Notes: generated by a model not told the origin, from the letters alone. A stretch of 64,000 nt of DNA from Gammaproteobacteria bacterium (GCA_965221835.1 OZ244916.1:1785643-1849642), one strand, 5' to 3'; shown: positions 1,812 through 36,441, counted from the stretch's first letter. A program made the numbers and translations.

Positions 1812-2072
1812 AATTTAATTCCTTTTTTTGAAAGATTTTTTTTATTAACGATTTTCAAGAAATATCTTTTTCTGAACGATTTTTTTTATTAACGATTTTT
1901 AAGAAATATCCACCCGATAGTTCGGTACCTTTTAAATTGTTGCCGTTGCGATTCATAATTTAATTCCTTTTTTTGAAAGATTTTTTTTATTAACGATTTT
2001 CAAGAAATATCTTTTTTTGAACTATTTTTTTTATTAACGATTTTAAGAAATATCCACCCGATAGTTCGGTGC
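1786..2072. repeat. tandem segmental duplication (2 x ~143 bp) spanning the guaB 3' end and the 5' end/promoter of the 140-aa gene; each copy contains 2 copies of a ~30-bp AT-rich subrepeat
   Basis: Copy A ~1786-1929 and copy B ~1930-2072 are near-identical (aaattgttgccgttgcgattcataatttaattcc...ttaagaaatatccacccgatagttcggt). The last 30 nt of guaB (..NYRVDIS*) occur twice. Confidence 0.75.
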
Positions 2073-3494
2073 CTCGCGCGTGATTTGTACATCGTGAACA
2101 TGCGATTCGCGTACGGCGGCGGGTGACACGCGGATAAACTTTGCTTTTTTGAGTGCGACAATATCGGGCGCACCGACATAGCCCATCGCCGACCGCAAAC
2201 CGCCCAAAAGTTGATACAAAACTTCGGAAACTTTTCCCTTAAAAGGCACGCGCCCTTCAACGCCTTCGGGCACGAGTTTGCCGGGCAACTCGCCGTCTTG
2301 CGAATAGCGTTCGCCGCTGCCTCGCCGCATTGCCGCCAAAGAACCCATTCCGCGATACCGTTTGTAAGAACGCCCCTGATACAACTCAATCTCGCCCGGC
2401 GATTCTTCGGTACCGGCAAGCATTCCGCCCGCCATCACGGCGTCCGCACCGGCGGCAATTGCCTTTGCGACATCGCCCGAATAACGCAATCCGCCGTCCG
2501 CGATAATTGCCGGACCGTTTTTGCCGACCGCTTTTGCAACCGCGCGAATTGCCGAAAACTGCGGCACGCCCACGCCTGCTACCATTCGCGTTGTGCAAAT
2601 GGAACCGGGACCGATTCCGACTTTGACGACATCCGCACCGGCGGCGGCAATGTCTTTCGCACCGGCGGCGGTTGCAATGTTGCCGCCGACAATCAACACG
2701 CCCGCTGCGCGTATTTTTTTGAGTCGTTTAATAGCATCCAAAACGCCGCGACTATGCCCGTGTGCCGAATCCACAACCAACGCATCCGCCCCCGCTTCGG
2801 CGAGAAGGGCGGCGCGTTCGTCGTCATTAATGCCGATTGCCGCCGCCGCCCGCAGACGTTTTTTGTCGTCTTTGCTGGCATCCGGAAAAGTTTCGGCGCG
2901 AACAATATCTTTTACGGTGACAAGACCGCGCAATATCCCGCGCGCATCCGTAATCACAACCCGTTCAATACGGTGTTCGTGCATCAATGCTTTCACCCGC
3001 CGCATGCCAAATCCCGGGCGCACCGATACGAGTTTGTCTCGCGGCGTCATCAGTTCGTGCACGGGGCGGTCGGGGCGATTTTCAAAGCGAATATCGCGGT
3101 TAGTAATAATGCCTTGCACGACGCCGTCTTTGTCTACGACCGGCATTCCCGAAAATCCGCGTTTGTCTTTAATTTCGCGCACTTGTCCGATGGTCATATC
3201 GGGCGAAACGGTAGCGGGCGAAGAAACGATTCCGCTTTCAAATCGTTTCACTTTTTCCACTTCTTCCGCCTGATTTTGCGCGGACATATTTTTATGAATC
3301 ACACCCAGCCCGCCGAATTGGGCGATAGCAATCGCCATTTCGGCTTCGGTCACAGTATCCATTGCGGCGGAAATAAACGGCGCAGCAAGCGAAAAGTTTT
3401 CGTGCAACATAGTCCGCGTAGACGCATCTTTCGGCAAAACCCCCGAATACCCCGGCGTCAACAAAACATCATCAAAAGTCAGCTCCGCATCCAT
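2043..3494 (-). CDS. guaB: inosine-5'-monophosphate dehydrogenase
   Basis: [17 protein letters not shown]..., CBS pair, catalytic [11 protein letters not shown] loop. The ORF track start at 3710 is an upstream extension; ATG at 3494 gives 484 aa. Confidence 0.95.
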
Positions 3495-3562
3495 CCCCGA
3501 ATTATACGCCGATTTTCGGCGTTCCCCGAATCGTCCATTTTGCGGAAAAATGAATTGAACGG

Positions 3563-4309
3563 TTATACGGCGTGAATGACAATTTTCGGCATTTCGTCCC
3601 AAGTTCGTTTTTGGAAACTCCTGCCGTTGGCGTGTTTGCCGCGTTTTACGCCGTCCGCGCCCCACGCGCCCCATTGTTTGAAGAAAAATTTGGCATTCGC
3701 GGCGCGGCATTGCCGCTTAATATTCGCCACCCATTCTTTTTGCATCGGACGCGCCTTTCGTCCGGATTCGCCGCCGACAATAACCCAATGAATTCCTTCC
3801 AAACTACGCCGAATATCGCCGAGATCTTCCAGCAACGGTTCCACCGACAAAAAACGAACTTCGGCGGAGATGTCGCGCAATATGCCGATGCGCGGCACGC
3901 CGTGCCTTTTGTTTTCCACCGAAACGCCCAGCCACGCATTCGGCGGCGCGGCGCGAACGGAAAAATATTGTCGCATCACCTTCGGTCGTTTGGTAAGAAT
4001 TTGATAAGTATGCCGCGGCGTTTCGCGAATCGTGTCCATCACTTTGTCAATGAACGGGAACGGTACGCCGGGATGAAATAAATCGGACATGGAATTGACG
4101 AAATAAATTGTCGGCGTTTTGCGGCGGCGCGGTGCGTCCAATCGCCCCTCGTGAAGCGACAACGCGAATCCGTTTTCATATCCCGCCGCACCCATCGCCC
4201 GCAGACGGTGCGCCATCGTTTCGGCATAACAATTTTTGCACCCCGCCGACACCTTAGTACACCCAGTCACCGGATTCCAAGTTTGCTCCGTCCATTCAAT
4301 TGACGACAT
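3563..4309 (-). CDS. phage Gp37/Gp68 family protein (DUF5131), three-Cys motif
   Basis: MSSIEWTEQTWNPVTGCTKVSAGCKNCYAE N-terminus typical of the Gp37/Gp68 family. No adjacent TcmP-like partner gene. Confidence 0.7.
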   Translation of the reverse strand: MSSIEWTEQTWNPVTGCTKVSAGCKNCYAETMAHRLRAMGAAGYENGFALSLHEGRLDAPRRRKTPTIYFVNSMSDLFHPGVPFPFIDKVMDTIRETPRHTYQILTKRPKVMRQYFSVRAAPPNAWLGVSVENKRHGVPRIGILRDISAEVRFLSVEPLLEDLGDIRRSLEGIHWVIVGGESGRKARPMQKEWVANIKRQCRAANAKFFFKQWGAWGADGVKRGKHANGRSFQKRTWDEMPKIVIHAV

Positions 4310-4425
4310 TATGAGTTTCCTCCGTATTTGCTAAATAAATAATACGCTATTTTGTTTGCCGTGTGGTTTGCAAAACAAAATCGGCGAAAGTATAACAAAT
4401 TTTTAACGGCGCAAAAATGTTCCGC

Positions 4426-4479
4426 GGTGGACATTGCGGCAAAAATTGTGGACATTTTTTTGTTTCAATGTCCACATTT
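4426..4479. promoter_or_regulatory. operator-like site: inverted repeat TGTGGACATT-N10-AATGTCCACA plus an upstream direct half-site GTGGACATT
   Basis: Perfect 10-bp inverted repeat at 4447-4456 / 4467-4476. Extra half-site at 4428-4436. Lies in the upstream region of the Gp37/Gp68 gene. Confidence 0.4.
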
Positions 4480-4535
4480 AATCCGTTGCAAACCACATGT
4501 TCCGCCGTGCAACCATGCATTTGCGCGGAATTGCC

Positions 4536-4564
4536 GCCCCAAAATTTCCGCCTTTCGGGCGGGG
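4536..4564. repeat. 29-bp hairpin-forming repeat CCCCAAAATTTCCGCCTTTCGGGCGGGGG, copy 1 (copy 2 at 6146-6174)
   Basis: Identical 29-mer occurs twice as a direct repeat bracketing the RT gene and its upstream non-coding region. It contains the hairpin CCGCC-TTTC-GGGCGG. Confidence 0.75.
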
Positions 4565-4954
4565 GGGCGAAGTGCAAATCCGCACCAACGGATTCGCGGA
4601 GATGAAATTCCGCATGATTCTTCCGTTCGGCGGGCGGGGGAATCCTCGCCGTTGCCTTTTCCGAAAAAAATTATCCCCCGAAAGCGGAACATTGAAAAAT
4701 TTCATATTTTTGGGAGATCAGAGGTTGAAATTTTGTGGCGAAATCCATATAATGAAATTTATGAAATGGAAATAATTTCAATATCGGCGACAAGTGCTTT
4801 CAAGCCCTCTTTGTAGGGGAAATTTCGCTTATCGCCTTTCGATTTGCGCCAAATCAGCGCAATATCGCAAGGGCACAGTATCGCGACATCGTTTTTTTGC
4901 GTTTTTGCGCGATATTTGCAAAAAGTGAAACTATCAGCAGTAAAAAGCTGACGG

Positions 4955-5200
4955 TAAGGGTTTACTTGAAAACAAGGCAAATTTGGCATTTGTCGCTTAT
5001 TATGGCTGACGGAATAAGTATTCCGAATGTCATACGCAACCGGCATTGTGGTTAGCGGTCAGAACAGAAAGGAGGATAAAATGAACTGTTTAATATCATG
5101 CCGGGGTAAATTGCCTTGTTGGTTCTTTGCGATCGGTTGGAAAACGCCAAAATTTAGCGTTTCAATAATCATCGTGCGTTGGAATCAAGAGTAAACCCCA
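4955..5200 (+). ncRNA. candidate retron msr-msd non-coding RNA
   Basis: 9-bp inverted repeat GGGTTTACT (4958-4966) / AGTAAACCC (5190-5198) in a1/a2-like positions, with a2 ~30 nt upstream of the RT start. Internal 13-bp long-range inverted repeat (4971-4984 / 5108-5120). Small hairpins ggaataagtattcc and aaacgc-N9-gcgttt. Structural inference only. Confidence 0.35.
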
Positions 5201-5228
5201 ACAACCGCTTTTATATGAATGGTTTTTT

Positions 5229-6134
5229 ATGATTTGCACCCCAAACCCCATTATTCGCCCTGAATCGCTGTTGAGATTGTTGCGCATCAACAAAAAACAC
5301 CTGCACGACATTTTGTCCGACAAGGAACGCTTTTATACATCTAAAACGCTAACCAAGTGCGACAAAAAAAGGAATGTTTATATTATCAAGAAGCCGTTGA
5401 AACAAATTCTTGATACCATGAAAGACACTATTTTTCTGAATGTGCAATATCCCGCATATCTTCACGGTTCACTGCCGGGAAAAAGCCCGAAGACGAACGC
5501 TAGCGCGCATTGCGGTGCGGTTTCGGCAGTATTGATGGATATTCAATCCTTTTTCCCCTCTATCACTTGCGAGCATGTATATTATATGTTCCGGCATCGC
5601 TTCCAATTTTCCAAAAAAGTATCCAAAATGCTGGCGGACATTATCACATACGATGGGCGGCTTCCCCAAGGATCGCCCGTGAGTTCCTATATTGCAAATT
5701 TGGCGTTGCGAGGCGAAGGCGAATTATATCGGTCGCTTGTTGCCAAAAATTACTGCTATACGCGATATGTAGATGATATTGCCATTTCTTCGCGTTCTAG
5801 TTTGTCGGAGGTGGAATTGCTTAAAATTAAGAAAGAGGTTCAATGTTTGATTAAACATAACAATCTCCATATCAAACGAAAAAAGACCCAACTGTGCAGA
5901 GCGGGAGCGCGTATCGTAATCACCGGATTAGTTGCAGGATCTAACGGTCCCCGAATTCGCAAAGAATATGTTGCGGATGTGCTGGATGATATAAAAGAAA
6001 TATCAAGCCGCGGATTTCACAATGCCGAAATCCAAAGTATCCAAGGCAAGATTCAATATGTTCGCCAATTTTCCTCCTCCAAAAAAGAAGGAGATTATTT
6101 GGACAGACAATTAAGAATCGCCTTGGAAAATTAG
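5229..6134 (+). CDS. retron-type reverse transcriptase
   Basis: RT motifs DIQSFFPSI, LPQGSPVSSYIANLAL, YVDDIAISS. Retron-specific VTG-like motif (ARIVITGLVAG). 301 aa, typical retron RT size. Confidence 0.85.
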   Translation: MICTPNPIIRPESLLRLLRINKKHLHDILSDKERFYTSKTLTKCDKKRNVYIIKKPLKQILDTMKDTIFLNVQYPAYLHGSLPGKSPKTNASAHCGAVSAVLMDIQSFFPSITCEHVYYMFRHRFQFSKKVSKMLADIITYDGRLPQGSPVSSYIANLALRGEGELYRSLVAKNYCYTRYVDDIAISSRSSLSEVELLKIKKEVQCLIKHNNLHIKRKKTQLCRAGARIVITGLVAGSNGPRIRKEYVADVLDDIKEISSRGFHNAEIQSIQGKIQYVRQFSSSKKEGDYLDRQLRIALEN

Positions 6135-6145
6135 CGGGAAAATCA

Positions 6146-6174
6146 CAACTCCCTCCCCAAAATTTCCGCCTTTC
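6146..6174. repeat. 29-bp hairpin repeat, copy 2
   Basis: Identical to 4536-4564. Confidence 0.75.
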
Positions 6175-6509
6175 GGGCGGGGGCGGTTTTGATTTGTTTG
6201 CGGAAATCAGAAGCGATGTACGGAATCCAAACGGAGTTTTCCTTTGTTTGCGAAATCGCCGATTTGTCGCCAATTAAATCCGGCTGACTTTGCATGCTCG
6301 CAAACGTCTATACCCTCAAACGAAAGCGGCGATTTCGGCGTACTGCAACCCGTAATCAGTACGGCGGCGAAAAGAATAGCGGTTCCGATATACAAAGCCG
6401 ACAAAACGCAACGGGAAGAAATCGCCCTCGTTAAACAACGGCAATCCCGCCGCCGCAACGCCGAACGCGGCAAAGCGAAATCCGTCCTCAAATAGTTATA
6501 ATTCAAGGA

Positions 6510-7385
6510 ATGTTCCCAGCCGACATCCAAAAAGAGACCTTTTTTACTCTTGGCGATCAAACGCCGAGTCGCTATCAGTTGTTGGAAACGATTACCCGGT
6601 ATGATAAATGGGGGATGATAAAATTTAAGTTCTCCGACATAATTCAGCGTGCGTTTGCAAAGCAAACAGGACTGGATTTGTTCAATGATTGGCACGACTC
6701 CGAAGCGATGTGGCGCAAATTTGATTCTGATGAGGAATGCCAACTGGCGAAAAAATGGATAAACGAACAAGGGGGTAACACTGTGGTCATCCGCAGTTTG
6801 TTGTCGCTGTGTCTCGCCTTGGATTTTCAAATGCGGACCGGCGACGGGAAAATTGCAGGCAGAACGGAAACGGGAGAATTGGTATACCAAGCCAAACCCA
6901 AAAAAGGACAATCCGCATGGCTCGAAGAAAACCGGCGAGCCATCGGCGTGCTGGTCAACCTCCTCTCCGCAAAAATTCAAAATACCGCCGGCTATCAGAG
7001 TGCCGCATATATCGCCGCCGTTCCGTCCTCTCCCGACAAACCGCTGGATTTGCCGACGGAGTTGGCGAAGCGAATTGCGGAAAAAACGAATCTGCACGAC
7101 ATCGGTGCGGGATTTTCGTATGCCAGCGACAAATTAATGCTTAAAGAAGTTTCCGCGGATAAAAAATGGGTGGAGTTGGAAAAATCCGGAATGGCATTTG
7201 ACCGAAATAAAGGCGGCGCAACCAATCGGCAAAAAGGCGTGATTTTGTTGGACGATTTATATCAATCCGGTGCTACAATGCATTATGCCGCAATGCAGAT
7301 GCAGCGGGCGGGGATGTCGCGCATTTTGGGTTTGACGGCGGTGAAGACAATGCGAAACGATGACAATCAGCAACGAGACAATTGA
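6510..7385 (+). CDS. phosphoribosyltransferase (PRTase)-domain protein, ComF-like; putative retron effector component
   Basis: C-terminal type I PRTase PRPP-binding signature VILLDDLYQSGATM. N-terminal ~190 aa of unknown function. Confidence 0.7.
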   Translation: MFPADIQKETFFTLGDQTPSRYQLLETITRYDKWGMIKFKFSDIIQRAFAKQTGLDLFNDWHDSEAMWRKFDSDEECQLAKKWINEQGGNTVVIRSLLSLCLALDFQMRTGDGKIAGRTETGELVYQAKPKKGQSAWLEENRRAIGVLVNLLSAKIQNTAGYQSAAYIAAVPSSPDKPLDLPTELAKRIAEKTNLHDIGAGFSYASDKLMLKEVSADKKWVELEKSGMAFDRNKGGATNRQKGVILLDDLYQSGATMHYAAMQMQRAGMSRILGLTAVKTMRNDDNQQRDN

Positions 7386-8085
7386 AATTCCGCCGGAGCA
7401 TCGGCTGTATCCGGCGCGGGCGGAGGCGTTTTTGCGCGCGCGTCCGGTATTGTCGGCGATGGGCAACACTTCTTTGTTGACCGCCCCTTTTTCGCTGGGA
7501 ATATGCGGGTCGCGCACCGACGAACGCGGCATTGACGCCGCACGCGCGTTCGTGGAGCAACTCGCGCGCGAAATGCCGGAAATTGTCATTGTCTCCGGCA
7601 ATGCGGCGGGAACCGATTTGGCGGCGCATTACACCGCGCTGAAAAACGGTATTGGAACGATTTTTGTATTGCCGGAAGGCGTTTCGCATTTTCGCATCCG
7701 CAAACAACTGCGCGAAGTTTGGAGTTGGGAAAAAGTGTTGGTTGTCAGTCAATTTCCCGCGGACGCATGTTGGGCGGTGGGGCGGGCGATGGCGCGCAAT
7801 CATCTTATTTTGGCGTTGTCGCGCGCGATGCTGGTTTCCGCCGCCGGAAGTGTCGGCGGCACAAAAGCCGCCGCAGACGCCGCCGTCCGCCACAAAGTTC
7901 CGCTGTTCACTGTCGGCTACAAAGAAAGTTCCCCCGTTGGCAATGTGGATTTGCACCGCCGCCGCTATGCGTTGCCGGTCGGGAAAAAACCGGGCACCGA
8001 TCATGCGAATGTGGACAAAATCGTGCAGACGATAATCGCCTCCGGCGGCGCGGATTCGGCGCAAAACTCTTTCGCTTTGCAATAA
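7360..8085 (+). CDS. DprA/Smf-family (Rossmann/SLOG-like) protein, standalone
   Basis: IVIVSGNAAGTDLAAHYTAL and VLVVSQFPADACWAVGRAMARNHLILALSRAMLVSAAGSVGGT match the DprA Rossmann-fold core. Start overlaps the stop of the PRTase gene (translational coupling). Confidence 0.7.
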   Translation: MTISNETIEIPPEHRLYPARAEAFLRARPVLSAMGNTSLLTAPFSLGICGSRTDERGIDAARAFVEQLAREMPEIVIVSGNAAGTDLAAHYTALKNGIGTIFVLPEGVSHFRIRKQLREVWSWEKVLVVSQFPADACWAVGRAMARNHLILALSRAMLVSAAGSVGGTKAAADAAVRHKVPLFTVGYKESSPVGNVDLHRRRYALPVGKKPGTDHANVDKIVQTIIASGGADSAQNSFALQ

Positions 8086-8286
8086 TCGGCGAATAATCGC
8101 GTTGCGATATTCCCGCCCGTTGCAGTCAAAACGCGAGGCGTACAAACAAAGATATTCCGCGTTTTTGTCCTGCTGCAAATACGAAAACAACTGCCCGCCG
8201 TTGCCCTCCATTTTTTAGTTTCGTTGTCGCATTCCGCGCCCCAAGTTTTGCATTCAATATGCGCGAAAACATTTATAATTGCGGCG

Positions 8287-11200
8287 ATGGGAGAGCGACC
8301 GGTTATTTTGGATAATCAACGCGCGGCGGTGGCGGAATATCTGCGCGCGTGTTTGGAGGGCGCGGATTTGTTTCGCATCGTTTCGGCGTATTTTTCGGTT
8401 TTCGGATATGAAACGTTGGCGGAAAAACTGGAATCCGCGTCCGCGCCGAAAGTGCGTTTTTTGTTCGGCGCGCCCGATTCGGCGGACGATGCCGAATCGG
8501 GCGACAAAACGCAGCGCGTTTTTGCGTTGACCGAATCGGGTTTGTCGGCGAACGAAATGTTGCATCAGCGCGAACTCGCCGAACGATGCGCGGCGTGGAT
8601 TCAAAAAAGTACGGAAGTACGAAAAATTTCGCGACAAAATTTTTTGCACGGCAAAATGTATCATCTGGAATCGAACGCGGACGGCGCGGCGGTGGTCGGC
8701 AGTTCCAACTTTACGCGGCGCGGGATGGGAATGTCGCGAAATCCGAACATAGAAATTAATCTTGCAACGACGAACGCAGAAGATCTCGCCGCGCTGGCGG
8801 AATGGTTTGACGAAGTTTGGGAAGACGAAAAATTAACGGAAGATGCCAAACCGGATCTTCTCGCTGCATTGAAAAGATGGACGGCGGAATACGCACCCGA
8901 ATTTTTATATTACAAAGTTTTGTACGAATTGTTCCGCAACGAAATTCGTGCGCGCGAACAGGAGGGCGACGAATCCGCCGAACGGCTGGACGGTACCGAA
9001 ATATGGAAGACGCTGTACGAATTCCAAAAAGACGGCGCGAGAACCGTCGTCGGGCGGTTGTTGCGGCACGGCGGTTGCATTCTCGCCGACAGCGTGGGAC
9101 TCGGCAAAACTTACACCGCGTTGGCGGCGATAAAATATTTTGAAATGCGCAACAAAAACGTGCTGGTACTTTGTCCGAAAAAACTGGAACAAAACTGGCG
9201 TCTTTATCAGGCGAGTGCCGCCGTTCCGCGCAATCCGTTTGTCGCCGACAAATTCGGTTATCATCTTTTGTCGCACACCGATCTGGGACGCGAAAAAGGG
9301 AAAGTCGGCAACATTGATTTGTCTAAGTTTGATTGGGGCGTTTACGATCTTGTCGTCATTGACGAATCGCACAACTTTCGTAACGATTCTAAAAGTCGCA
9401 GCAACGAAAGCGGCGAAATCGTCCGCCGCAGCCGCTACGAAACATTGCTGGAAGATGTCATAAAAACGGGCGAAAAAACCAAAGTTCTGATGTTGTCGGC
9501 GACGCCGGTTAACAATTCGTTAACCGATTTGCGAAACCAAATTTATTTAATGACCGGCGGGCGCGAAGATGTTTTTGCCGATTCGCTGGGCGTGCGTCAT
9601 ATCAAAACGGTCGTTCGTGCGGCGCAAAGACAATTTCACGAATGGGAAAAACATTCGCACGAAAAGCGGGACAAAGGCGAACTGCTGGCGTCTTTGGGGG
9701 ATGATTTTTTGAATCTACTCGCAGGTGTTACTATCGCCCGTTCGCGGCGGCAGATTAAAAATTTTTACGCCGATTTTATCGCCCGGCATGGCGATTTTCC
9801 GAAGCGCGAAAAACCGCAAAACGAACATCCGCACGCCGATTCGCGCGGCGAGTTTTCGTACGATGAATTGCACGACGATCTTCTGGCATTGAATTTTCAC
9901 ATTTATCGTCCGTCCGATTATGTTGTCGGGGCGGGTGCGCGGGCGCGTTTGGACGAAGAGAAAAAGACGCGCAACTTTAATCAAAAAGATCGCGAAAAGT
10001 TTTTGGTCGCGATGATGCGCGTTAATTTTCTTAAACGATTGGAAAGTTCCGCGCATGCTTGCAAACTCACGCTGGAGCGAACGCTTGCAAAAACGGATGC
10101 GCAAATCGAAAAAATAAATAATTTTTTGCAGCGGCGGGAGGAGGAATCGCAAACAGAACTCCCCGGCGATTCTCCGCGCGAAGCGGAAGGCGAATCGGAG
10201 AACGAATATGCGGAAGACGAAGATTTTGTCGTCAACCGCCGGGCGATGACGCCGTATCGATTATCCGAATTGGATGTGGAAAAATGGCGCGCGGATATGG
10301 CAGAAGACCGGCGCGCTTTGCGGGCGGCGTTGGACAAAGTACAGAAAATTACGCCGGAACGGGACGGCAAAATCGCGCTGCTAAAAAAACAAATCGCCGA
10401 AAAAGCAAAACGCAAAAACCGCAAACTTCTCGTCTTTACCGCCTTTAAAGATACCGCAGAATATCTGTACAATCAACTGCGTAAATGCGCCGAAGAATCG
10501 GGAATAAAAATTGCGTTCGTCGCCGGAGATGAAACCTCTGCCGGCGGCGGGCGAAATGCCTTTCCGGATATTCTCAATCGCTTTTCGCCCCGCGCACGAG
10601 GCGGCGAACCGGGCGCTGATGAAATTGATTTATTAATCGCAACCGATTGCATTTCCGAAGGGCAAAATTTGCAAGATTGCGACACGGTACTAAACTACGA
10701 CATTCATTGGAATCCGGTGCGTTTGATTCAACGTTTCGGGCGCGTAGATCGCATCGGCAGTACGAACAAATCGGTGCGGATGATTAATTATTGGCCGACC
10801 GAAGATATGGATTTTTATCTTAAATTGGAAAACCGCGTACGCGCGCGGATGGCGTTGGCGGATATTGCCGGCACCGGCGACGATGATGCGCTGAACGAAA
10901 AAGAAATGGAAAAATCCGCGCAACAGGAACTGCATTTTCGCAACGAACAACTAAAACAAATGCGCGAGAAAATTAGCGATATGGAGGAAATGGACGATTC
11001 CGTTACGATGTCCGATTTGACATTGGATTATTTCATCACGCAACTTCTCCGTTATCTGCAAAAAAACAAAGACGATCTGGAAGCCGCACCGCCGGGAATT
11101 TATGCGGTCGCGAACGCCGCAGACGGAGAGGCGAAAACCGCACCGCACGACAACGGCGCGATATTTCTTTTTCGCCGCACGAACGCCGCCGAAGACGACC

Positions 11201-11595
11201 GGACGGGTTTTTATCTCGTGCATTGCGAAAACGGAAAAGTGCGCGCGGGGCATCTGAAAGTTCGCGAAACTTTGCGCATTTTTGAATCGCTGGCGAAAGA
11301 CAAAAACAAACCGCTGAAAAAGTTGTGCGACATTTTTTCGCGCGAATTGAAAAGCGAAAACGGCGCGCGCTTTTACGACAAAATGGCAAACGCCGCCGTG
11401 TGCGACATCGGCGACACCGCCGACCGCCGTGCGGGCGAATCGTTGCGGCGCGATGCCGGACGCGGCGGAATGTTGCCGAAAGTTTGCGAACGCCCCGCCG
11501 TCAACAATTTGGAACTCGTTGCGTGGCTGGTCGTCAAAAAAGATGAAATCGGCGCGACAGAGTTGCGCGCGCAACGAACCGCCGCCGATGGTTGA
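8287..11595 (+). CDS. PLD-like nuclease domain fused to SNF2-family helicase
   Basis: N-terminal HKD-like motif HGKMYHLESNADGAAVVGSSNFT. SNF2 motifs DSVGLGKT, DESHNFRN, LMLSATPVNNS, and C-terminal helicase LLIATDCISEGQNLQ...RFGRVDRIGS. ORF track start 8224 is TTG; the first ATG is 8287. Confidence 0.85.
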   Translation: MGERPVILDNQRAAVAEYLRACLEGADLFRIVSAYFSVFGYETLAEKLESASAPKVRFLFGAPDSADDAESGDKTQRVFALTESGLSANEMLHQRELAERCAAWIQKSTEVRKISRQNFLHGKMYHLESNADGAAVVGSSNFTRRGMGMSRNPNIEINLATTNAEDLAALAEWFDEVWEDEKLTEDAKPDLLAALKRWTAEYAPEFLYYKVLYELFRNEIRAREQEGDESAERLDGTEIWKTLYEFQKDGARTVVGRLLRHGGCILADSVGLGKTYTALAAIKYFEMRNKNVLVLCPKKLEQNWRLYQASAAVPRNPFVADKFGYHLLSHTDLGREKGKVGNIDLSKFDWGVYDLVVIDESHNFRNDSKSRSNESGEIVRRSRYETLLEDVIKTGEKTKVLMLSATPVNNSLTDLRNQIYLMTGGREDVFADSLGVRHIKTVVRAAQRQFHEWEKHSHEKRDKGELLASLGDDFLNLLAGVTIARSRRQIKNFYADFIARHGDFPKREKPQNEHPHADSRGEFSYDELHDDLLALNFHIYRPSDYVVGAGARARLDEEKKTRNFNQKDREKFLVAMMRVNFLKRLESSAHACKLTLERTLAKTDAQIEKINNFLQRREEESQTELPGDSPREAEGESENEYAEDEDFVVNRRAMTPYRLSELDVEKWRADMAEDRRALRAALDKVQKITPERDGKIALLKKQIAEKAKRKNRKLLVFTAFKDTAEYLYNQLRKCAEESGIKIAFVAGDETSAGGGRNAFPDILNRFSPRARGGEPGADEIDLLIATDCISEGQNLQDCDTVLNYDIHWNPVRLIQRFGRVDRIGSTNKSVRMINYWPTEDMDFYLKLENRVRARMALADIAGTGDDDALNEKEMEKSAQQELHFRNEQLKQMREKISDMEEMDDSVTMSDLTLDYFITQLLRYLQKNKDDLEAAPPGIYAVANAADGEAKTAPHDNGAIFLFRRTNAAEDDRTGFYLVHCENGKVRAGHLKVRETLRIFESLAKDKNKPLKKLCDIFSRELKSENGARFYDKMANAAVCDIGDTADRRAGESLRRDAGRGGMLPKVCERPAVNNLELVAWLVVKKDEIGATELRAQRTAADG

Positions 11596-11605
11596 AGTTT
11601 GAACA

Positions 11606-14600
11606 ATGGAAAAAACGATGAACGACAATTTGCTGCATAAAACTAAAAACGCCCTCGCCGAATGCATTCGTCCCGCCGAAAACTTCGCCGCCGCGGCGGA
11701 AAACTTACTAAACGCACTCGGCTACGAAAGCGACCGCAAACATGTCGGCGGCAATGATTCGGTACGCGATTTCGTTCGCGATTTTCCCGCGCCGCAAGCG
11801 GAAACAAAAACCGAATCGGAATTCGTCCGCGCCGCAAAATCCGCGCGCATCATCTTTCAATATACCGGAGAAGAAATTAGCAAATCGCAAAACATGTTCG
11901 GCGCGACATTTAACGAGGGCGACATTGAAAGTTTTTTGTTTGTCGCCGTAGAGTTAAAATCCGGCGATTATGCGCGCGGCAAATACGCCGAATTCGCGCG
12001 CGAAATCAACAAGCGATTTGGAATGCCGACGGTCGTTTTGTTTCGCACGGCGGACGGCGCAGATAAATTGTCGCTCGCGTTTGTCGGACGGCGCGCACAC
12101 AAAACCGATTCCGCCCGCGATGTTTTGGAAAAAGTTTCGCTGCTGCGCAATATCAATTGCAACAAACCGCACCGCGGACATTTGGATATTCTTTTGCAAC
12201 TGTCTTTGCAAAATCGGCTGGAATGGATGTCGCGCAACAGCAAGGAAAAAAACTTCGCCGGACTTCTCGCCGCATGGCTGGACGAACTCAACACGGACGC
12301 GTTAAATAAACGTTTTTATGGCGAACTGCTTTCGTGGTTTGAACGCGCAAATCAAAAAATCTGTTTTCCGGCGAACTTGCAAAACAAGCGCGAAGATTGG
12401 ACGATTCGCCTGATTACGCGCCTGCTTTTTGTCTGGTTCGTCAAAGAAAAAAATCTTGTCGCCGAAGATTTGTTTTACAAATCGCAAATTTGCCCGCTGT
12501 TAAAAAATGGTGCGAATCCAACCAACGATTCGTACTATCGCGTTGTTTTGCAAAATCTCTTTTTTGCGACTCTCAATACGCCGATAAAAGATCGCAAATT
12601 CAGCGAAGGCGGACGCGATGCGCATCGCGATTTTTCGCGGTGGCGATATGCCGCCGAAATCGCAAACGACAAATGCAAAGAAAAACTAAAACAACTCTTC
12701 GCGCAAACGCCGTTCATCAACGGCGGACTCTTTGATTGTTTGGACGGCTACGACAGCCCGGCGAGTGCGAAAAACGCCGGACGCGAAGGCGGCGAAGAAC
12801 GGACAGATTATTTTTCGGAATCGTATTACAAAGATTCGCGCATAAAAGACAAGTTGTCGGTTCCCGATTCTTTGTTTTTTGCCGAAAACGGATTGCTTTC
12901 TATTTTCCAAAAATATAAATTTACGGTGGAAGAAAATACGCCGATAGAACAAGAAGTGGCGTTGGATCCGGAACTGCTGGGGCGCGTCTTTGAAAACCTT
13001 CTCGCTTTTTACAATCCGGAAACGCGCGAAAATGCGCGCAAACAAACCGGTTCTTTTTATACCCCGCGCGAAGTTGTAGATTATATGACGCGCGAATCGG
13101 TGGCGGAATGTTTGGCGGCGAAAACCGGTGCGGACGGCGATAAAACGCGCGCGCTTTTGGATTATGCTGCACCTGCTGATCATTCGTTTTCGGCGGCGGA
13201 AGTTAAATCTTTAGTACGTGCAATTTCCGAAATTAAAATTTTTGATCCCGCCGCCGGATCGGGGGCGTTTCCGATGGGCGTTTTGCATCTTCTTACGCTC
13301 GCGCTTTCGCGTTTGGATTCGCAAAATGCGGAATGGCACGAACTGCAAAAAAATCGCGCGCAAAAAGATGCGGCGGAAACCTTTCATCGCGCCGACAAAT
13401 CCGAACGCGGCGAACGGCTGGATGAAATTAACGAAGTTTTTTCGCGCTATTCCGATTCCGATTTCGGGCGCAAATTGTTTCTCATACAAAACAGCATTTT
13501 CGGTGCGGACATTCAGCCGGTCGCATGTCAAATTTCCAAACTGCGATTTTTTATTTCGCTGGCGATAGAACAAAAGCGGGATGCGAACGCGGAAAACTTC
13601 GGCATAAAACCGCTGCCGAATTTGGAAACGCGATTCATCGCCGCCGATTCGCTGATTAAAATCGGCGGCAGGGGACAAGGCGCACTAAAATCGGAAGCGG
13701 CGGCGAAGTTGGAACGCGACCTCGCGGCGAATCGCGAACGGCATTTTAATGCGACCGCCCGCAAAACAAAATTGCACTGCAAAAACAAAGATGAAGAATT
13801 GCGCAAAAAACTTGCGGCAGAGTTGAAAAAAACCAGCGGATTTGATAACGAAGACGCCGGACGCATCGCTGTTTGGAATCCGTACGACCAAAACGCCGCC
13901 GCGAAATGGTTTGATGCGGAATATATGTTCGGCGTCGCCGACGGCTTCGACATCGTCATCGGCAATCCGCCGTATGTGCAATTGCAAAGAGACGGCGGAC
14001 GATTGGCAAATTTATACGCGCCGCAAAACTACGAAAGTTTCGCGCGCACGGGCGATTTGTATATGTTGTTTTACGAACGCGGATTGCAACTTTGCGCGTC
14101 CGGCGGCGGGCTGATGTTTATCACTTCCAACAGTTGGTTGCGCGCAAACTATGGCGCAAATTTGCGCGGCGTTCTCGCCCGCCATAATCCGCGTTTGCTG
14201 ATTAATATGGGCGCGAATGTTTTTGAAAATGTATCTGTTAGCGTGAACATTTTGGGCGTTCAAAATGCACCGAACCGTAATGAATTGTTGGCGAATGATT
14301 TTGTTCGCACGGGCGATTTTCCGCCGTCCGAATGGCATTCCATTGCGCCGAAAAATAAAGACGGATGGGCGATTGTATCCGCGTCTGAAAACACTTTGCG
14401 CGCGAAAATTGAACAGGCGGGAACACCAATTAAGAATTGGAATGTTCGCATGTTTTTCGGTATTAAAACCGGTTATGACAAAGCGTTTTTGATTGATGCG
14501 GCGACCAAACACCGTTTGTGCGCGGAAGATCCGGGCAGTGCGGAAATTATCAAACCGACGATTCGCGGGCGGAATATTGGTAGATACTTTTACGAATCTG

Positions 14601-15193
14601 CTGACGAGTATGTTATCGCTACATTTCCTTCCAAAAATTTGTCTATTGAAAATTTTCCGGCGGTGAAAAAATATTTGCAATCTTTCGGCGACCGTTTAGA
14701 GCAAAGCGGGCGTCCGGGTTGCCGCAAGAAAAGCGCGCATGCGTGGTTTGAAACACAGGACGCAGTCGCGTATTATCCGGAATTTGAAAAAGAAAAATTG
14801 ATTTGGACAGACATCGCCCAAGCCGGACGGTTTTTCTATGACACCGAAAAACTGTACCCGATGGCAAGCGGGTTTGTAATGACCGGAGAAGATATTCAAT
14901 ATCTTCTCGCCGTTCTTAACTCGCGCTTGATCACTTGGTATATGCCAAATGTCGCCGTGAATCTTGGCGATAGCGGGCTTCGATGGAAAAAGATATATGT
15001 GGAAAAACTCCCAATCCCGCAAATTCCCAAAGCGGAACAACGCCCGTTCATAGAGTTGGCACAAAAAATCACCGCCGCCAAAGCAGCAAACCCCGCCGCC
15101 GACACCCACGAATGGGAATCCGAAATAGACCACCGCGTCTACAAACTCTACAACCTAACCAAAAAAGAAATCGCCATAATAGAGGCGGAATGA
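11606..15193 (+). CDS. MmeI/Eco57I-family type IIG-like N6-adenine DNA methyltransferase with N-terminal PD-ExK nuclease-like domain and C-terminal TRD (1195 aa)
   Basis: N-terminal D-x10-ELK (GDIESFLFVAVELK). Motif X FYTPREVVDYM. Motif I DPAAGSGAF. Motif IV IGNPPYVQ. Long C-terminal region. Confidence 0.85.
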   Translation: MEKTMNDNLLHKTKNALAECIRPAENFAAAAENLLNALGYESDRKHVGGNDSVRDFVRDFPAPQAETKTESEFVRAAKSARIIFQYTGEEISKSQNMFGATFNEGDIESFLFVAVELKSGDYARGKYAEFAREINKRFGMPTVVLFRTADGADKLSLAFVGRRAHKTDSARDVLEKVSLLRNINCNKPHRGHLDILLQLSLQNRLEWMSRNSKEKNFAGLLAAWLDELNTDALNKRFYGELLSWFERANQKICFPANLQNKREDWTIRLITRLLFVWFVKEKNLVAEDLFYKSQICPLLKNGANPTNDSYYRVVLQNLFFATLNTPIKDRKFSEGGRDAHRDFSRWRYAAEIANDKCKEKLKQLFAQTPFINGGLFDCLDGYDSPASAKNAGREGGEERTDYFSESYYKDSRIKDKLSVPDSLFFAENGLLSIFQKYKFTVEENTPIEQEVALDPELLGRVFENLLAFYNPETRENARKQTGSFYTPREVVDYMTRESVAECLAAKTGADGDKTRALLDYAAPADHSFSAAEVKSLVRAISEIKIFDPAAGSGAFPMGVLHLLTLALSRLDSQNAEWHELQKNRAQKDAAETFHRADKSERGERLDEINEVFSRYSDSDFGRKLFLIQNSIFGADIQPVACQISKLRFFISLAIEQKRDANAENFGIKPLPNLETRFIAADSLIKIGGRGQGALKSEAAAKLERDLAANRERHFNATARKTKLHCKNKDEELRKKLAAELKKTSGFDNEDAGRIAVWNPYDQNAAAKWFDAEYMFGVADGFDIVIGNPPYVQLQRDGGRLANLYAPQNYESFARTGDLYMLFYERGLQLCASGGGLMFITSNSWLRANYGANLRGVLARHNPRLLINMGANVFENVSVSVNILGVQNAPNRNELLANDFVRTGDFPPSEWHSIAPKNKDGWAIVSASENTLRAKIEQAGTPIKNWNVRMFFGIKTGYDKAFLIDAATKHRLCAEDPGSAEIIKPTIRGRNIGRYFYESADEYVIATFPSKNLSIENFPAVKKYLQSFGDRLEQSGRPGCRKKSAHAWFETQDAVAYYPEFEKEKLIWTDIAQAGRFFYDTEKLYPMASGFVMTGEDIQYLLAVLNSRLITWYMPNVAVNLGDSGLRWKKIYVEKLPIPQIPKAEQRPFIELAQKITAAKAANPAADTHEWESEIDHRVYKLYNLTKKEIAIIEAE

Positions 15194-15196
15194 CCG
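15155..15196. repeat. direct repeat A (3' end of the MTase gene); second copy at 16248-16287
   Basis: ctaaccaaaaaagaaatcgccataatagaggcggaatgacc vs ctaaccaaagagggaatcgccataatagaggcggaatgacc (38/41 identical). Confidence 0.75.
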
Positions 15197-15388
15197 CATC
15201 CAAACCGAACGCGGCGCGGTGATAAAACTGAAAAAACGGGAAGAAATTCGTTCCGCATTTTCGCTGTTATTTGAGCAATCATGCGGGACTTATCAAAATC
15301 GCTATGCAGGAAAGTGTAGATGCGTGGGACTCTGGTGGAATGGCAAATTGATGTATAATTGCGCCGCAACCATTGCAGGAGGTAAAAA

Positions 15389-15715
15389 ATGAAAATATCC
15401 ATCGCCAAAGATTTTTCGGATGTGCCTATCGGGCGTGCCCGGTCGGACGGCGACTATACCGGCGAGGCGTTTCGGGAGGATTGGCTCGTTCCGAAACTGC
15501 GGAAGGCATCGGCGAACGATCCCTTAATCATCAATTTGGACGGCGCCGAGGGGTATCCTTCGTCGTTCCTGGAAGAGGCATTCGGAGGGCTGGTGCGAAA
15601 CGGATACACCGCCGCCGATCTGCACAAACTCTTGAAAATAGAGGCGGGTAGCGGCTATAAAACCTACCGGGATATCATCTGGGATTACATCAAAGCGGCG
15701 GATTCTCTCGATTAA
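15389..15715 (+). CDS. DUF4325 (STAS-like) small protein
   Basis: Strong RBS AGGAGG. Sequence pattern DFSDVPIGRARSDGDYTGEAFRE...LDGAEGYPSSFLEEAFGGLVR matches the DUF4325 family. Confidence 0.6.
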   Translation: MKISIAKDFSDVPIGRARSDGDYTGEAFREDWLVPKLRKASANDPLIINLDGAEGYPSSFLEEAFGGLVRNGYTAADLHKLLKIEAGSGYKTYRDIIWDYIKAADSLD

Positions 15716-16155
15716 TGATGTCGCCTCACATTGTCCAGGCGGTTGTGCTGGTTCTGTGCGTTATCATTACTTTTGTTTTTAACGCGATATTGCAGCATCG
15801 GCTTTTGCATCGGCAAGGCAGGGAAAAAATTATTGATGCTTTGCTGCAATTGGTGGAAGAACAAAAGCAGTTTTACGCCGCCTATTGGGAAAAAGACGCC
15901 GCCGATGGCGCAGTGTCCGCATCCATAAACGAGACGATGCAGCAAACCCGATTTGATGCGCTGTTGGAGTTTGCCGGACGGAAATACAAATTCCGCAATA
16001 TAAACGACATTAATCGTCAGTACAGGAAATTCTGCAAAACGGCAACCGGCGACAACTTTGGCGAAAAAAACAGGGCGGCGAATACCGAAAAAGCGCGGCA
16101 TATTCATGCCATTGCGAACCAAATATACATCATTCTTTTGGAAAACAAAGTGTAG
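15715..16155 (+). CDS. hypothetical membrane protein (1 N-terminal TM helix), translationally coupled to the DUF4325 gene
   Basis: TAATG overlap with upstream gene. N-terminal hydrophobic segment AVVLVLCVIITFVFNAIL. Confidence 0.5.
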   Translation: MMSPHIVQAVVLVLCVIITFVFNAILQHRLLHRQGREKIIDALLQLVEEQKQFYAAYWEKDAADGAVSASINETMQQTRFDALLEFAGRKYKFRNINDINRQYRKFCKTATGDNFGEKNRAANTEKARHIHAIANQIYIILLENKV

Positions 16156-16169
16156 GGACGCAGTGCCGC

Positions 16170-16234
16170 AAAACTCCGTTTTATATCCCGTTTCCGCGCC
16201 GTTTAATTCGGGGCGGTTGCCGGTTTCGGGGTTG
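16170..16234. repeat. direct repeat P' : duplicated 5' end of pip (copy of 17422-17486)
   Basis: aaaactccgttttatatcccgtttccgcgccgtttaattcggggcggtt..cggtttcggggttg is identical apart from 2 nt to the pip start region. It encodes SVLYPVSAPFNSGRL in an out-of-context position. Confidence 0.8.
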
Positions 16235-16247
16235 TATTTTCTACAAT

Positions 16248-16287
16248 CTAACCAAAGAGGGAATCGCCATAATAGAGGCGGAATGAC
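16248..16287. repeat. direct repeat A' (second copy of the MTase 3' end)
   Basis: See 15155-15196. Confidence 0.75.
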
Positions 16288-16321
16288 CAACAACAAAATC
16301 ACCAGCGAAGCGTTTGCTGCG

Positions 16322-16861
16322 TTATTCCCCGCTACCGAGATGTTCCTTGTAGCGTCTTATGAAATCAAGAAATTCCGGCAGAAATTCCTTTTTTTGCTTC
16401 TCATAATCGGCGTCAGAATCGGACGCCGGTTTTGCCACTTTTTCTTTCGCGTCATTCCTGCCGGGACCCCGGAACACCTCGCGCAATAATATGCCGTACA
16501 GCACGATAAAACTAAGGAACGCGCCCGAAACCAGCAACGCTTGCGCCACAGGATGAATCATTTTGATAATATCGGCTGGTTGCATAAAAACGATAAAAAC
16601 GAATGGGAATATCACCCAAGGCGCGATTAGCGTAATGACGATGCTGAAAAACCGAAACCAATAATATTGACGGGCGACAATTTGATTGTGTTCGGTAGTT
16701 GCCTTGTCTCGCTCCTCGGAGTTCTGATTGCGCGCCTCTTCGCGCTCAAAAAACTTCAACATTTTGCCCAGCATCTTCATTTCTTCCTGCCGACGCTCGG
16801 CGTCGTTGAGCATTCCGGCGGACTCGCTGCCAAGTTCGTGATGATTTTTTTCGCCGATCAC
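16322..16861 (-). CDS. membrane protein (2-3 TM), candidate toxin partner of the Panacea-domain gene
   Basis: Hydrophobic core FRFFSIVITLIAPWVIFPFVFIVFMQP...LVSGAFLSFIVLYGILL. ATGA overlap with the upstream Panacea gene. Confidence 0.5.
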   Translation of the reverse strand: MIGEKNHHELGSESAGMLNDAERRQEEMKMLGKMLKFFEREEARNQNSEERDKATTEHNQIVARQYYWFRFFSIVITLIAPWVIFPFVFIVFMQPADIIKMIHPVAQALLVSGAFLSFIVLYGILLREVFRGPGRNDAKEKVAKPASDSDADYEKQKKEFLPEFLDFIRRYKEHLGSGE

Positions 16862-17346
16862 GACAGATCCTTAATCAATTTTTCGTAGTATTCCTTGATG
16901 ATTTCGTTAGGAATCGTGCCGAAATATTGATCTTTGCACTGATCCCACGGCGTGCCTTCGCGGTGTGTTAAATCCGAAAGCGAGAATGCGCCCAAACGCG
17001 AATACCGTTCGTAAACTTTGCTTACGATGTCCGCTTCATCTTCGTTGAGTTTGGTCGTATAGTCCGGAAACTCGCCGAATTCCGGGTCGTACGGACGCGC
17101 CTTGTTTTTGATGACAAACTGCGGCGCGAACGCGCGATATACTTCTGGAATGACCGGTCCGAATTTCCACGCTTGCACCTGATGGCGAATCAGCGGCTTG
17201 CCGGTGTAGCCGAGAGTCCAGCCGTGCGCCAGATATACATATTTTACCAGCGGCATAATCGTCAGCCGCTTTTTCGCGGCGCGCGCTTTGTCGACAAAAA
17301 TGTTCGCAATCGCACGCGAATCATGTCCCTTTTTTCCGAATAGCAT
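16858..17346 (-). CDS. Panacea-domain (DUF4065, SocA-like) antitoxin-family protein
   Basis: LTIMPLVKYVYLAHGWTLGYTGKPLIRHQVQAWKFGPVIPEVY resembles the DUF4065/Panacea N-terminal core. Confidence 0.55.
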   Translation of the reverse strand: MLFGKKGHDSRAIANIFVDKARAAKKRLTIMPLVKYVYLAHGWTLGYTGKPLIRHQVQAWKFGPVIPEVYRAFAPQFVIKNKARPYDPEFGEFPDYTTKLNEDEADIVSKVYERYSRLGAFSLSDLTHREGTPWDQCKDQYFGTIPNEIIKEYYEKLIKDLS

Positions 17347-17414
17347 TGTTATTTCACCTTTCTGTATAATTATTCAGATTTTATCATATTTTCGCCCGCC
17401 GTTATAATCGGCGA

Positions 17415-18374
17415 ATGTCTGAAAACTCCGTTTTATATCCCGTTTCCGCGCCGTTTAATTCGGGGCGGTTGGCGGTTTCGGGGTTGCATTCGGTGGCGTT
17501 TGCGGAGTATGGAAATTCGCGGGGGATTCCGGTTGTTTATTTGCATGGCGGACCGGGCGGCGGCTCTTCGCCTTCGCAGGCGGCGTTTTTTTGTCCGCAA
17601 AAGTTTCGCGTTTTGTTGTTTGATCAGCGGGGTTGCGGCAGGTCTTTGCCGCATGCGGAGTTGCGCGAAAACACGACTTGGGATTTGGTTGCAGATATGG
17701 AAAAGTTGCGTGCGCATCTCGGCATTAAAAAATGGTTGGTGTGCGGCGGGTCGTGGGGAAGTGCGTTGGCGTTGGCGTATTCGCAAAAACATCCCGCCCG
17801 TTGTTTGGGAATGATTTTGCGCGGCATTTTTACTTTGCGGCGGGCGGAGTTGTTGTGGTTTTATCAAGAGGGTGCGAGTTGGATTTTTCCGGAGTTGTGG
17901 GCGGATTTTATCGCACCGATTCCGCCTGCCGAACGCGGCGATTTGCTTTCGGCGTATCATCGCCGATTGACTGGAAAAAACCGGGCGGAAATGAATCGGT
18001 GTGCGATTGCGTGGAGCAAATGGGAGGCGGCGACATTGTCGTTTGCGCGAAATGAAAAACGCGTTCGCGAATTTTCCGCGCCGCTTTTTGCGAAGGCGTT
18101 TGCGCGAATTGAATCGCATTATTTTGTTCACGGCGGATTTTTTGCGCGGGATGGACAACTGATTGCGGATGCGCAAAAACTTGCGGGCGTGCCGGGCGTT
18201 ATCATACAAGGGCGATACGATATTATTACGCCGACAAAAACCGCGTTTGATTTGCATCGCAACTGGCCGGGGTCGCGTTTGGAAATCGTTCCCGATGCCG
18301 GACACGCCGCCGACGAACCGGGAATCGCCGCCGCAATTCGCAAAGCCGCAGACGCGTTTGCGGAGAAATTTTAA
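17415..18374 (+). CDS. pip: proline iminopeptidase (S33)
   Basis: GIPVVYLHGGPGGG, GGSWGSALALAY nucleophile elbow, 319 aa. Confidence 0.9.
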   Translation: MSENSVLYPVSAPFNSGRLAVSGLHSVAFAEYGNSRGIPVVYLHGGPGGGSSPSQAAFFCPQKFRVLLFDQRGCGRSLPHAELRENTTWDLVADMEKLRAHLGIKKWLVCGGSWGSALALAYSQKHPARCLGMILRGIFTLRRAELLWFYQEGASWIFPELWADFIAPIPPAERGDLLSAYHRRLTGKNRAEMNRCAIAWSKWEAATLSFARNEKRVREFSAPLFAKAFARIESHYFVHGGFFARDGQLIADAQKLAGVPGVIIQGRYDIITPTKTAFDLHRNWPGSRLEIVPDAGHAADEPGIAAAIRKAADAFAEKF

Positions 18375-35299: not shown

Positions 35300-35558
35300 T
35301 ATAAACGAATATAAACGAATCGCTGCCGCATGCTTTTACGGAAAGCAAAAGTAATTTGTTGTATAATGCCGTGCGAGTTTGTTTTTCCGTCTTCCTTTTT
35401 TCATTCCCCAGCGCAGCCGCAATAGAGATATATTTCGTAGATATTGCGCAATAAACCCATTGCGCCTTTTGTCGCAATCAAAACGGAAACATGGTATAAT
35501 TGTTCCGTTGCGGATTCATTTCCGCTTTTAATCCCTACAAATAATAAGGAGAAAAACG

Positions 35559-36041: not shown

Positions 36042-36044
36042 CAA

Positions 36045-36078
36045 AACCGGCGGGGATTCAATGTCCCCGCTTTTTTTG
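36045..36078 (+). terminator. rho-independent terminator (family hairpin CCGGCGGGGATTCAATGTCCCCGC + T7)
   Basis: GC stem followed by T-run immediately after the ank stop codon. Confidence 0.7.
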
Positions 36079-36438: not shown

Positions 36439-36441
36439 GCC

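Follow-up and report, generated by a model that had tools for sequence, protein, structure and literature searches.

Defence systems that pair a helicase with a DNA methyltransferase are built in several ways. [quoted passage not shown] Class 1 DISARM (DrmA, DrmB, DrmC, DrmD and DrmMI) has a Snf2 helicase, an Eco57I-type N6-adenine methyltransferase and a PLD nuclease in its gene set, together with the YprA-like DrmA and the DUF1998 protein DrmB. In type III systems the beta-class methyltransferase Mod holds the sole DNA-specificity element, and the ATP-dependent SF2 subunit Res joins a Rad25-like helicase to a C-terminal PD-(D/E)xK nuclease. Type ISP enzymes (LlaGI, LlaBIII) unite an Mrr-type nuclease, an HsdR-like ATP motor, a gamma-class methyltransferase and a single target recognition domain (TRD) in one polypeptide, and type IIG/IIL enzymes (MmeI, DrdV, Cj0031) cut without ATP, using their own conserved N-terminal PD-(D/E)xK domain. 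The present analysis concerns two genes at positions 8287-15193 of a 64,000-nucleotide stretch of DNA from a Gammaproteobacteria bacterium (GCA_965221835.1 OZ244916.1:1785643-1849642), referred to as the window. Gene 1 encodes a PLD domain fused to a Swi2/Snf2 ATPase and gene 2 a long methyltransferase. With a probability of about 0.6 the pair is read here as a self-contained, two-subunit, ATP-dependent restriction-modification-type defence module of a Mod/Res-like kind, in which gene 2 would be the reading and self-marking subunit and gene 1 the effector, a translocating nuclease.

The two long open reading frames (ORFs) are intact and co-directional on the plus strand (8224/8287-11595 and 11606-15193), with the 10-nucleotide gap that an earlier note on this DNA had described. 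The same note gave gene 1 a length of 1123 amino acids (aa), which is right when counted from an alternative in-frame TTG at 8224; from the start it used itself, the ATG at 8287, the product has 1102 aa. Homologues align from residue 1-7 of the 1102-aa form, and a database protein (P0001) is 100% identical to it. Gene 2 encodes 1195 aa from 11606, and its database form (NCBI, ENA) begins at 11618 and has 1191 aa. The features of the pair are as follows.

8287-11595, plus strand: gene 1, PLD (HKD) nuclease fused to a RapA-like Swi2/Snf2 ATPase, 1102 aa
8314-8886, plus strand: PLD/HKD nuclease domain, a single half-site (PLDc_2 7.5e-9; RE_NgoFVII 2.9e-5; BfiI, 2c1l, 4.2e-5)
8647-8655, plus strand: PLD motif H121-G-K123
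8698-8712, plus strand: PLD motif GSSNF
9004-10758, plus strand: Swi2/Snf2 ATPase core (family matches, motifs)
9097-9111, plus strand: Walker A, GLGKT
9361-9372, plus strand: DESH
9496-9507, plus strand: SATP
10729-10752, plus strand: motif VI, QRFGRVDR
10894-11592, plus strand: C-terminal alpha+beta region of gene 1, aa about 870-1102 (secondary structure of the AlphaFold2 model)
11606-15193, plus strand: gene 2, putative methyltransferase/specificity subunit, 1195 aa
11606-12160, plus strand: N-terminal alpha/beta domain of gene 2, aa 1-185, DUF4391-like (AlphaFold2 model, Pfam, hhalign)
11948-11959, plus strand: VELK, part of a 'D..ExK' string inside the N-terminal domain
12173-12970, plus strand: helical spacer domain, aa about 190-455, of MmeI_hel / PglX / HsdM-N type
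12968-14305, plus strand: gamma-class N6-adenine methyltransferase domain (Eco57I 2.6e-32, N6_Mtase; PDB matches CamA, BseCI, TaqI)
13055-13066, plus strand: FYTP, aa 484-487
13244-13270, plus strand: DPAAGSGAF, aa 547-555
13964-13975, plus strand: NPPY, aa 787-790
14003-15055, plus strand: variable region with a single TRD, aa about 800-1150 (TaqI_C 7.6e-13 at aa 984-1137)

Gene 1 matches the Pfam families PLDc_2 / RE_NgoFVII, SNF2-rel_dom / ResIII and Helicase_C, and its motifs HGKMY (aa 121-125), GSSNF, GLGKT, DESH, SATP and QRFGRVDR bear out the earlier description of an N-terminal HKD domain fused to a full SNF2 ATPase. Across 198 helicase homologues the PLD residues H121, S139, S140, N141, E156 and N158 are invariant, and K123 is a lysine in 197 and an arginine in one. 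The Snf2 motifs GxGKT, DESH, SAT and QRxxRxxR are equally constant, with S361 kept in 197 and S404 in 195 of the 198 and every other scored residue in all of them. The AlphaFold2 model of gene 1 (predicted local distance difference test, pLDDT, 76) finds its best match among solved structures in RapA (E 1.9e-15), along the whole length of the protein in an alignment of 1186 columns, gaps included; ZorD and SauUSI are also among the matches. RapA-like helicases have been reported for BREX type 3, DISARM, ARMADA and Hma/MANTIS-type systems, and the model places gene 1 among these defence helicases. Gene 1 carries one HKD motif only.

Two HKD half-sites pair to make one PLD active site in Nuc and BfiI. 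In the published structures of SauUSI and MtsD, too, the PLD active site is built by a dimer. Because gene 1 has a single half-site of this sort, two copies of it would, by analogy, have to come together to form one active site.

Full-length relatives with at least 50% identity number in the thousands for each protein, and several from the two sets lie on contigs of equal length, probably the same ones. A survey with one genome per GTDB species gave at least 598 confirmed relatives, and 80 loci from many phyla were fetched, among which sponge-associated lineages (Poribacteria, Caldilineaceae, Binatia, Latescibacterota) are prominent. The methyltransferase gene lies downstream on the same strand in 72 of the 80 loci and upstream on the same strand in two, both from Poribacteria and with FRG, TPR and TIR genes in between; the other six are uninformative, their contigs stopping too early or having a DUF1016 gene ahead of the contig end. 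The survey of two-gene synteny that the earlier note had proposed thus returns a same-strand pair in 74/74 informative loci, usually touching; in the two Pfam-annotated contexts (L001, L002), where the neighbours are otherwise unrelated, start and stop codons of the pair overlap or abut. The identities of the two partners correlate (r = 0.81). The pair is a conserved module with obligate linkage.

Clustering of all neighbouring ORFs in the 80 loci found no conserved third gene. The next commonest neighbours are AlbA_2/HATPase_c_4 regulators, DUF1016 proteins and an SMC/AAA_15 ATPase, in 13, 9 and 7 loci. About 25 loci have genes wedged between the pair, encoding AlbA_2/HATPase_c_4 regulators, DUF1016/YhcG, Fic, Bro-N, Uma2 or a four-helix-bundle protein. 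These neighbours and insertions are typical guests of type I restriction-modification operons. This linkage and the lack of a third gene support the idea of a stand-alone two-gene module.

The linkage also bears on whether the two genes act together at all. An orphan or type IIG methyltransferase could merely lie beside a SauUSI-like, modification-dependent (type IV) PLD-helicase, each with a function of its own. SauUSI does appear among the structural matches of gene 1 (E 8.6e-12), and recognition of modified bases is in principle conceivable for its C-terminal 230 aa. This arrangement is nevertheless very improbable given the same-strand linkage in every informative locus and the correlated divergence of the partners; a type IV enzyme beside an active N6-methyladenine methyltransferase would risk self-attack, and a Pfam scan found no reader-domain family in gene 1.

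The earlier note had called the module DISARM-like and drmA/drmB absent. No DrmA/DrmB, DUF499 or DUF3780 partner is present in the annotated contexts L001 and L002 or among the recurrent neighbours of the 80 loci, and no YprA/DUF1998 or DUF499 protein occurs among the window ORFs scanned (most of those above 300 aa, plus the neighbours of the pair). Gene 1 does match DrmD models (PADLOC 7.6e-35; NCBIfam DISARM_DrmD 2.4e-41, over residues 579-962 only) and the NCBIfam PLD anti-phage protein model (2.6e-42), which presumably represents MtsD, and gene 2 weakly matches the DrmMI (PADLOC 9.6e-16, 54.8 bits) and PglX models. These hits might be taken for the remains of a class 1 DISARM reduced to DrmD and DrmMI after loss of DrmA and DrmB, or of a MANTIS/BREX-related system minus its DUF499 ATPase. 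The scores, however, are far below the curated cut-offs (142 against 610 bits for DISARM_DrmD, 145 against 1100 for the PLD anti-phage model, and 71 against 500 bits) and much weaker than those of the dedicated models, HKD+Snf2 for gene 1 (7.8e-112) and REase_MTase_IIG for gene 2 (8.3e-137). The missing genes would have had to vanish from each lineage in many phyla, which is implausible, and degradation from such a system is scarcely credible as an origin of the pair. What stands of the DISARM comparison is distant homology; membership does not, the DrmD and DrmMI models being matched weakly and partially.

Gene 2 matches Eco57I, N6_Mtase and TaqI_C in Pfam and carries FYTP, DPAAGSGAF and NPPY in gamma-class order, as had been claimed. 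Across 153 homologues, G553 and Y790 in the motifs SxYTP, DxAxGxG and NPPY are kept in 152 and all other scored residues in 153. A sequence-profile search of the PDB with gene 2 returned no relatives of MmeI, PglX or BpuSI, only CamA, BseCI and TaqI for the C-terminal half. The variable region overlaps the C-terminal end of the methyltransferase span and is followed by a conserved C-terminal tail (aa 1151-1195). Compared alleles are mostly 96-100% identical over residues 1-800, with two short dips to about 82-90%. Between aa 800 and 1150, the TaqI_C region, identity falls to 10-70% in segments of most alleles and along the whole region in three, and the last 45 residues are conserved again. 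The cognate helicases, from contigs as long as those of the methyltransferase alleles and presumably the same ones, form one cluster of 23 proteins at least 90% identical. By alignment, then, TRDs are swapped among otherwise near-identical gene 2 alleles beside a constant helicase, and this mosaicism argues that specificity resides in gene 2. Such a pattern, in which an interchangeable specificity module serves one unchanging effector, is also seen in type I systems. Searches of the two genes and their surroundings for homopolymer or short-repeat tracts and for inverted TRD cassettes found none, so that phase variation or shufflon-type switching is not indicated here. Uptake sequences of the Neisseria type are absent.

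Gene 2 could also be a type IIG enzyme complete in itself, its N-terminal nuclease doing the cutting, with the PLD-Snf2 protein as an accessory that boosts or broadens restriction, for example by degrading cut DNA. The earlier note had seen an MmeI-like PD-ExK motif at the N-terminus, and the string exists: the window protein reads D106-x9-E116-x-K118. In alignments of 153 family members, however, no conserved MmeI-type nuclease emerges. At the aligned acidic position 101 members have D, the consensus residue, and the window protein itself has N; 107 members keep E116, 19 have D there and about 24 have A, Q, K or G; and only 69 have a lysine at K118. The triad columns thus hold 45-82% across the family, whereas the methyltransferase and PLD residues are near-invariant. 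Pfam MmeI_N matches neither gene 2 nor the family members scanned, and the N-terminal domain of gene 2 occurs elsewhere without a methyltransferase, fused to a sigma-70 factor or alone. A self-sufficient type IIG enzyme is therefore unlikely. Calling gene 2 a long, Eco57I/type-IIG-like methyltransferase remains apt; a nuclease of its own is doubtful, as no conserved MmeI-type nuclease N-terminus is found.

The N-terminus of gene 2 looks instead like a DUF4391-type module. In the AlphaFold2 model of residues 1-455 (pLDDT 76) an alpha/beta domain (1-185) precedes a helical domain (190-455), and a Foldseek search of the PDB with this model gave nothing significant. Pfam DUF4391 is matched in 5/13 family members (best 5.5e-3), hhalign aligns the gene 2 N-terminus with seven DUF4391 proteins over 138 columns (E 1.7e-4, probability 48-50%), and reciprocal hidden Markov model searches give single, specific, weak matches. 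In a homologue search with the DUF4391 profile the best 120 listed all shared 82% identity or more with the first sequence of the query, and the profile comparison was not deepened by it.

The 80 loci contain further forms of the domain, always encoded immediately behind the helicase gene. In L056 (3735-6194) it is fused to a complete sigma-70-family factor with regions 1.2-4 (phmmer against SigA, 6e-54), and in L008 (13249-14649) to a partial one; both fusions directly follow a RapA-like PLD-Snf2 gene. In L048 (14825-15676) a stand-alone protein of 283 aa lacks the methyltransferase core; it joins the N-terminal domain (34% identical to aa 39-196 of the window methyltransferase) to a match to that protein's C-terminal tail (aa 1082-1195), and is either the product of a natural deletion or an adaptor that works alone. 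Since it is found after the helicase fused to sigma-70 or alone, the DUF4391-like domain behaves as a portable partner of the PLD-Snf2 protein, and it is proposed to be the element that would couple gene 2 to gene 1. This reassignment would be a first functional hypothesis for the DUF4391 family. A sigma factor tethered to a relative of an RNA-polymerase-associated ATPase, as in L056 and L008, was unexpected.

The few sigma-70 fusions hint at a link to RNA polymerase, and together with the RapA-like helicase they would suit a BREX-like exclusion that does not cleave: methylation would mark self, and on unmarked DNA the Snf2 motor would evict or block the complexes of replication or transcription. 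The PLD domain would then have a minor role or be a phosphodiesterase acting on a target other than DNA. This is improbable in view of the PLD domain itself, whose catalytic residues hold across the 198 homologues as given above, which matches the restriction nucleases NgoFVII and BfiI, and whose counterpart of H121 in MANTIS, H122, is required for restriction.

A PLD-Snf2 gene and a DUF4391 module also occur together in a sister operon. On plasmids from seven genera, one of them archaeal (Raoultella, Listeria, Acetobacter, Mycolicibacterium, Photobacterium, Sulfitobacter and Methanomethylovorans; L084-L090), a PLD-Snf2 gene homologous to gene 1 over its full length (35-37% identity) is followed by a DUF4391 gene, a type III-like Mod methyltransferase and a DEAD-box Res-like helicase. 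DUF4391 stands directly after the PLD-Snf2 gene in the six loci where it is annotated, and an unannotated ORF takes this place in the seventh. The order PLD-Snf2, DUF4391 module and methyltransferase is shared with the present pair. In contrast to it, the DUF4391 module is a separate protein of about 185-270 aa, the methyltransferase is a 'site-specific DNA-methyltransferase' of about 480-700 aa, and the second large (DEAD-box) helicase is added in 6/7 loci. WYL, ATP-binding (e.g., between DUF4391 and the methyltransferase in the Raoultella locus) or AAA-family ATPase genes are sometimes added. One DUF4391 cluster, named after an E. coli protein, is found on at least 1000 contigs, and the sister operon appears to be common in Enterobacterales. 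No description of it was found in the literature.

Set against the described systems, the pair belongs to none and resembles all of them in logic. It has an HKD nuclease N-terminal to a Swi2/Snf2-type helicase, as in MANTIS, with the catalytic histidine at 121 rather than 122, and a separate N6-adenine methyltransferase. Unlike in MANTIS, neither a DUF499 ATPase nor a DUF3780-family co-regulator is seen in the window or the annotated contexts, and the methyltransferase is a 1195-aa Eco57I/TaqI_C-type protein with N-terminal domains of its own. From class 1 DISARM it differs in that DrmA and DrmB are not seen and the PLD nuclease is fused to the helicase. With type III it shares two subunits, a single specificity element in the methyltransferase, a nuclease on the ATP-dependent subunit and an expectation of asymmetric sites and hemimethylation; the methyltransferase is gamma-class (FYTP, DPAAGSG, NPPY), the motor RapA-like Snf2 and the nuclease an N-terminal PLD, and the likeness is one of analogy and not of membership. 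The suggestion of a split type ISP enzyme likewise holds as an analogy of logic, in that nuclease, ATP motor, gamma-class methyltransferase and single TRD recur and translocation-coupled cleavage is likely. It fails in the parts, with two proteins in place of one, PLD in place of Mrr and a RapA-like Snf2 motor in place of an HsdR-like one. A helical spacer, a gamma-class N6-adenine methyltransferase and a single TRD are held in common with type IIG/IIL enzymes, from which the pair departs in its DUF4391-like domain without a conserved triad and in the ATP-dependent nuclease encoded next door.

A two-subunit ATP-dependent restriction module would work in a cycle of four steps. With one TRD, gene 2 would probably recognise a short asymmetric site and methylate one strand, and host sites carrying this methylation would be ignored. 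At an unmethylated site the methyltransferase would recruit or license the PLD-Snf2 protein through its N-terminal domain. Translocation would then be powered by ATP hydrolysis, with the RapA-like Swi2/Snf2 part as a double-stranded-DNA translocase. Cleavage would follow once two motors dimerise or converge, which would favour DNA whose sites face in opposite directions, as is the case for type III, type ISP and MANTIS. As far as sequence can tell, the pair has the prerequisites of ATP-dependent restriction-modification, namely intact catalytic motifs and TRD diversification. Physical coupling, hemimethylation, cleavage on collision of translocating motors and a defence phenotype are what we infer from these features.

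Several points weigh against a two-subunit module of this kind. The link between DUF4391 and gene 2 is just moderately significant (hhalign about 49%, E about 2e-4; Pfam 5.5e-3). No fusion of helicase and methyltransferase occurs in the 80 loci. Promoter-like sites are fewer than in shuffled sequence and terminator-like counts are near shuffled, and both are uninformative on operon structure. MANTIS requires two extra proteins to load its methyltransferase, so that a two-protein system may work differently from it.

A broader proposal is entertained tentatively, at less than even odds: the module would belong to an unnamed, widespread class of ATP-dependent restriction in which a DUF4391-type adaptor plugs a PLD-Snf2 motor into interchangeable partners. 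Here the partner would be an Eco57I-type methyltransferase; the sister operon would use a type III-like Mod and a few loci even sigma-70 factors, and the two-gene form would be the minimal helicase-methyltransferase core of DISARM, ARMADA, BREX type 3 and MANTIS. The pair itself has the look of a pared-down relative of DISARM, MANTIS and type III systems rather than of a new principle. If the two-subunit model is true, the pair would be the simplest natural combination of a Snf2 helicase with a PglX/Eco57I-type methyltransferase, the heart of DISARM, ARMADA, BREX type 3 and MANTIS. Two proteins in place of four to six would make it tractable for asking how methylation status reaches a translocating PLD nuclease.

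The module is common: at least 598 GTDB species genomes have it, and its metagenomic relatives run to thousands. To judge from its PADLOC model hits, it is probably given just the labels 'type IIG' and 'helicase-related protein' by annotation tools, so that many genomes may be misdescribed in their restriction potential and ATP dependence. The PADLOC model 'HKD+Snf2' stems from a survey of type III CRISPR accessory genes. In the literature searched, the two-gene system appears as a table entry only, in Milman et al. 2023. A search of the open literature, with subscription journals and REBASE outside it, found no paper naming or testing the system, in keeping with the earlier view that it is possibly uncharacterised.

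The pair lies in a defence island that extends from guaB (2043-3710) to an alpha/beta-hydrolase gene (window 2043-17346). The island holds a DUF5131/PDC-M30B gene, a retron reverse transcriptase, a PsyrTA-like pair, the PLD-Snf2/methyltransferase module, a DUF4325 gene and a SocA_Panacea antitoxin gene (16858-17346) beside an ORF of 179 aa. A module homologue with 56% identity in another genome also adjoins guaB (L002 8464-9924). Directly upstream of the module are the following genes.

5229-6134, plus strand: retron-type reverse transcriptase (PADLOC RT_VI 1.9e-66; NCBIfam retron St85 family 1.9e-41, below cut-off)
6510-7385, plus strand: phosphoribosyltransferase (PRTase)-like protein (weak PsyrT/ShosT matches)
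7360-8085, plus strand: DprA-like PsyrA/ShosA protein (1.2e-32)

From these matches, the retron reverse transcriptase looks to be joined to a PsyrTA/Shosta-like pair. An arginine-rich minus-strand ORF of 312 aa (7273-8211) was considered as the upstream neighbour and rejected; it is antisense to the PsyrA/ShosA-like gene and almost certainly an artefact, despite a short match to a type IIG profile (2.8e-8).

Downstream of the module, the 49 nucleotides at the 3' end of the methyltransferase gene, stop codon included (15147-15195), recur at 16240-16288 with 92% identity. Immediately in front of this copy, the stretch 16170-16238 repeats the 5' coding end of the alpha/beta-hydrolase gene (17422-17490) with 97% identity. 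The same flanks therefore frame each of two cargos, DUF4325 with a 146-aa ORF and the SocA_Panacea pair. The junction scars at 15147-17490 look like the outcome of unequal recombination between strains with different cargo at one hotspot.

Farther along lies a low-GC block with strong GC skew (35000-45200). Among its several plus-strand ORFs of 330-400 aa is one, at 36442-37551, for an ankyrin-repeat protein, and an N6_N4 methyltransferase with a RAMA domain is encoded at 43808-45187. That the module has many relatives in sponge symbionts, taken with the ankyrin repeats, hints that the organism lives in association with a host.

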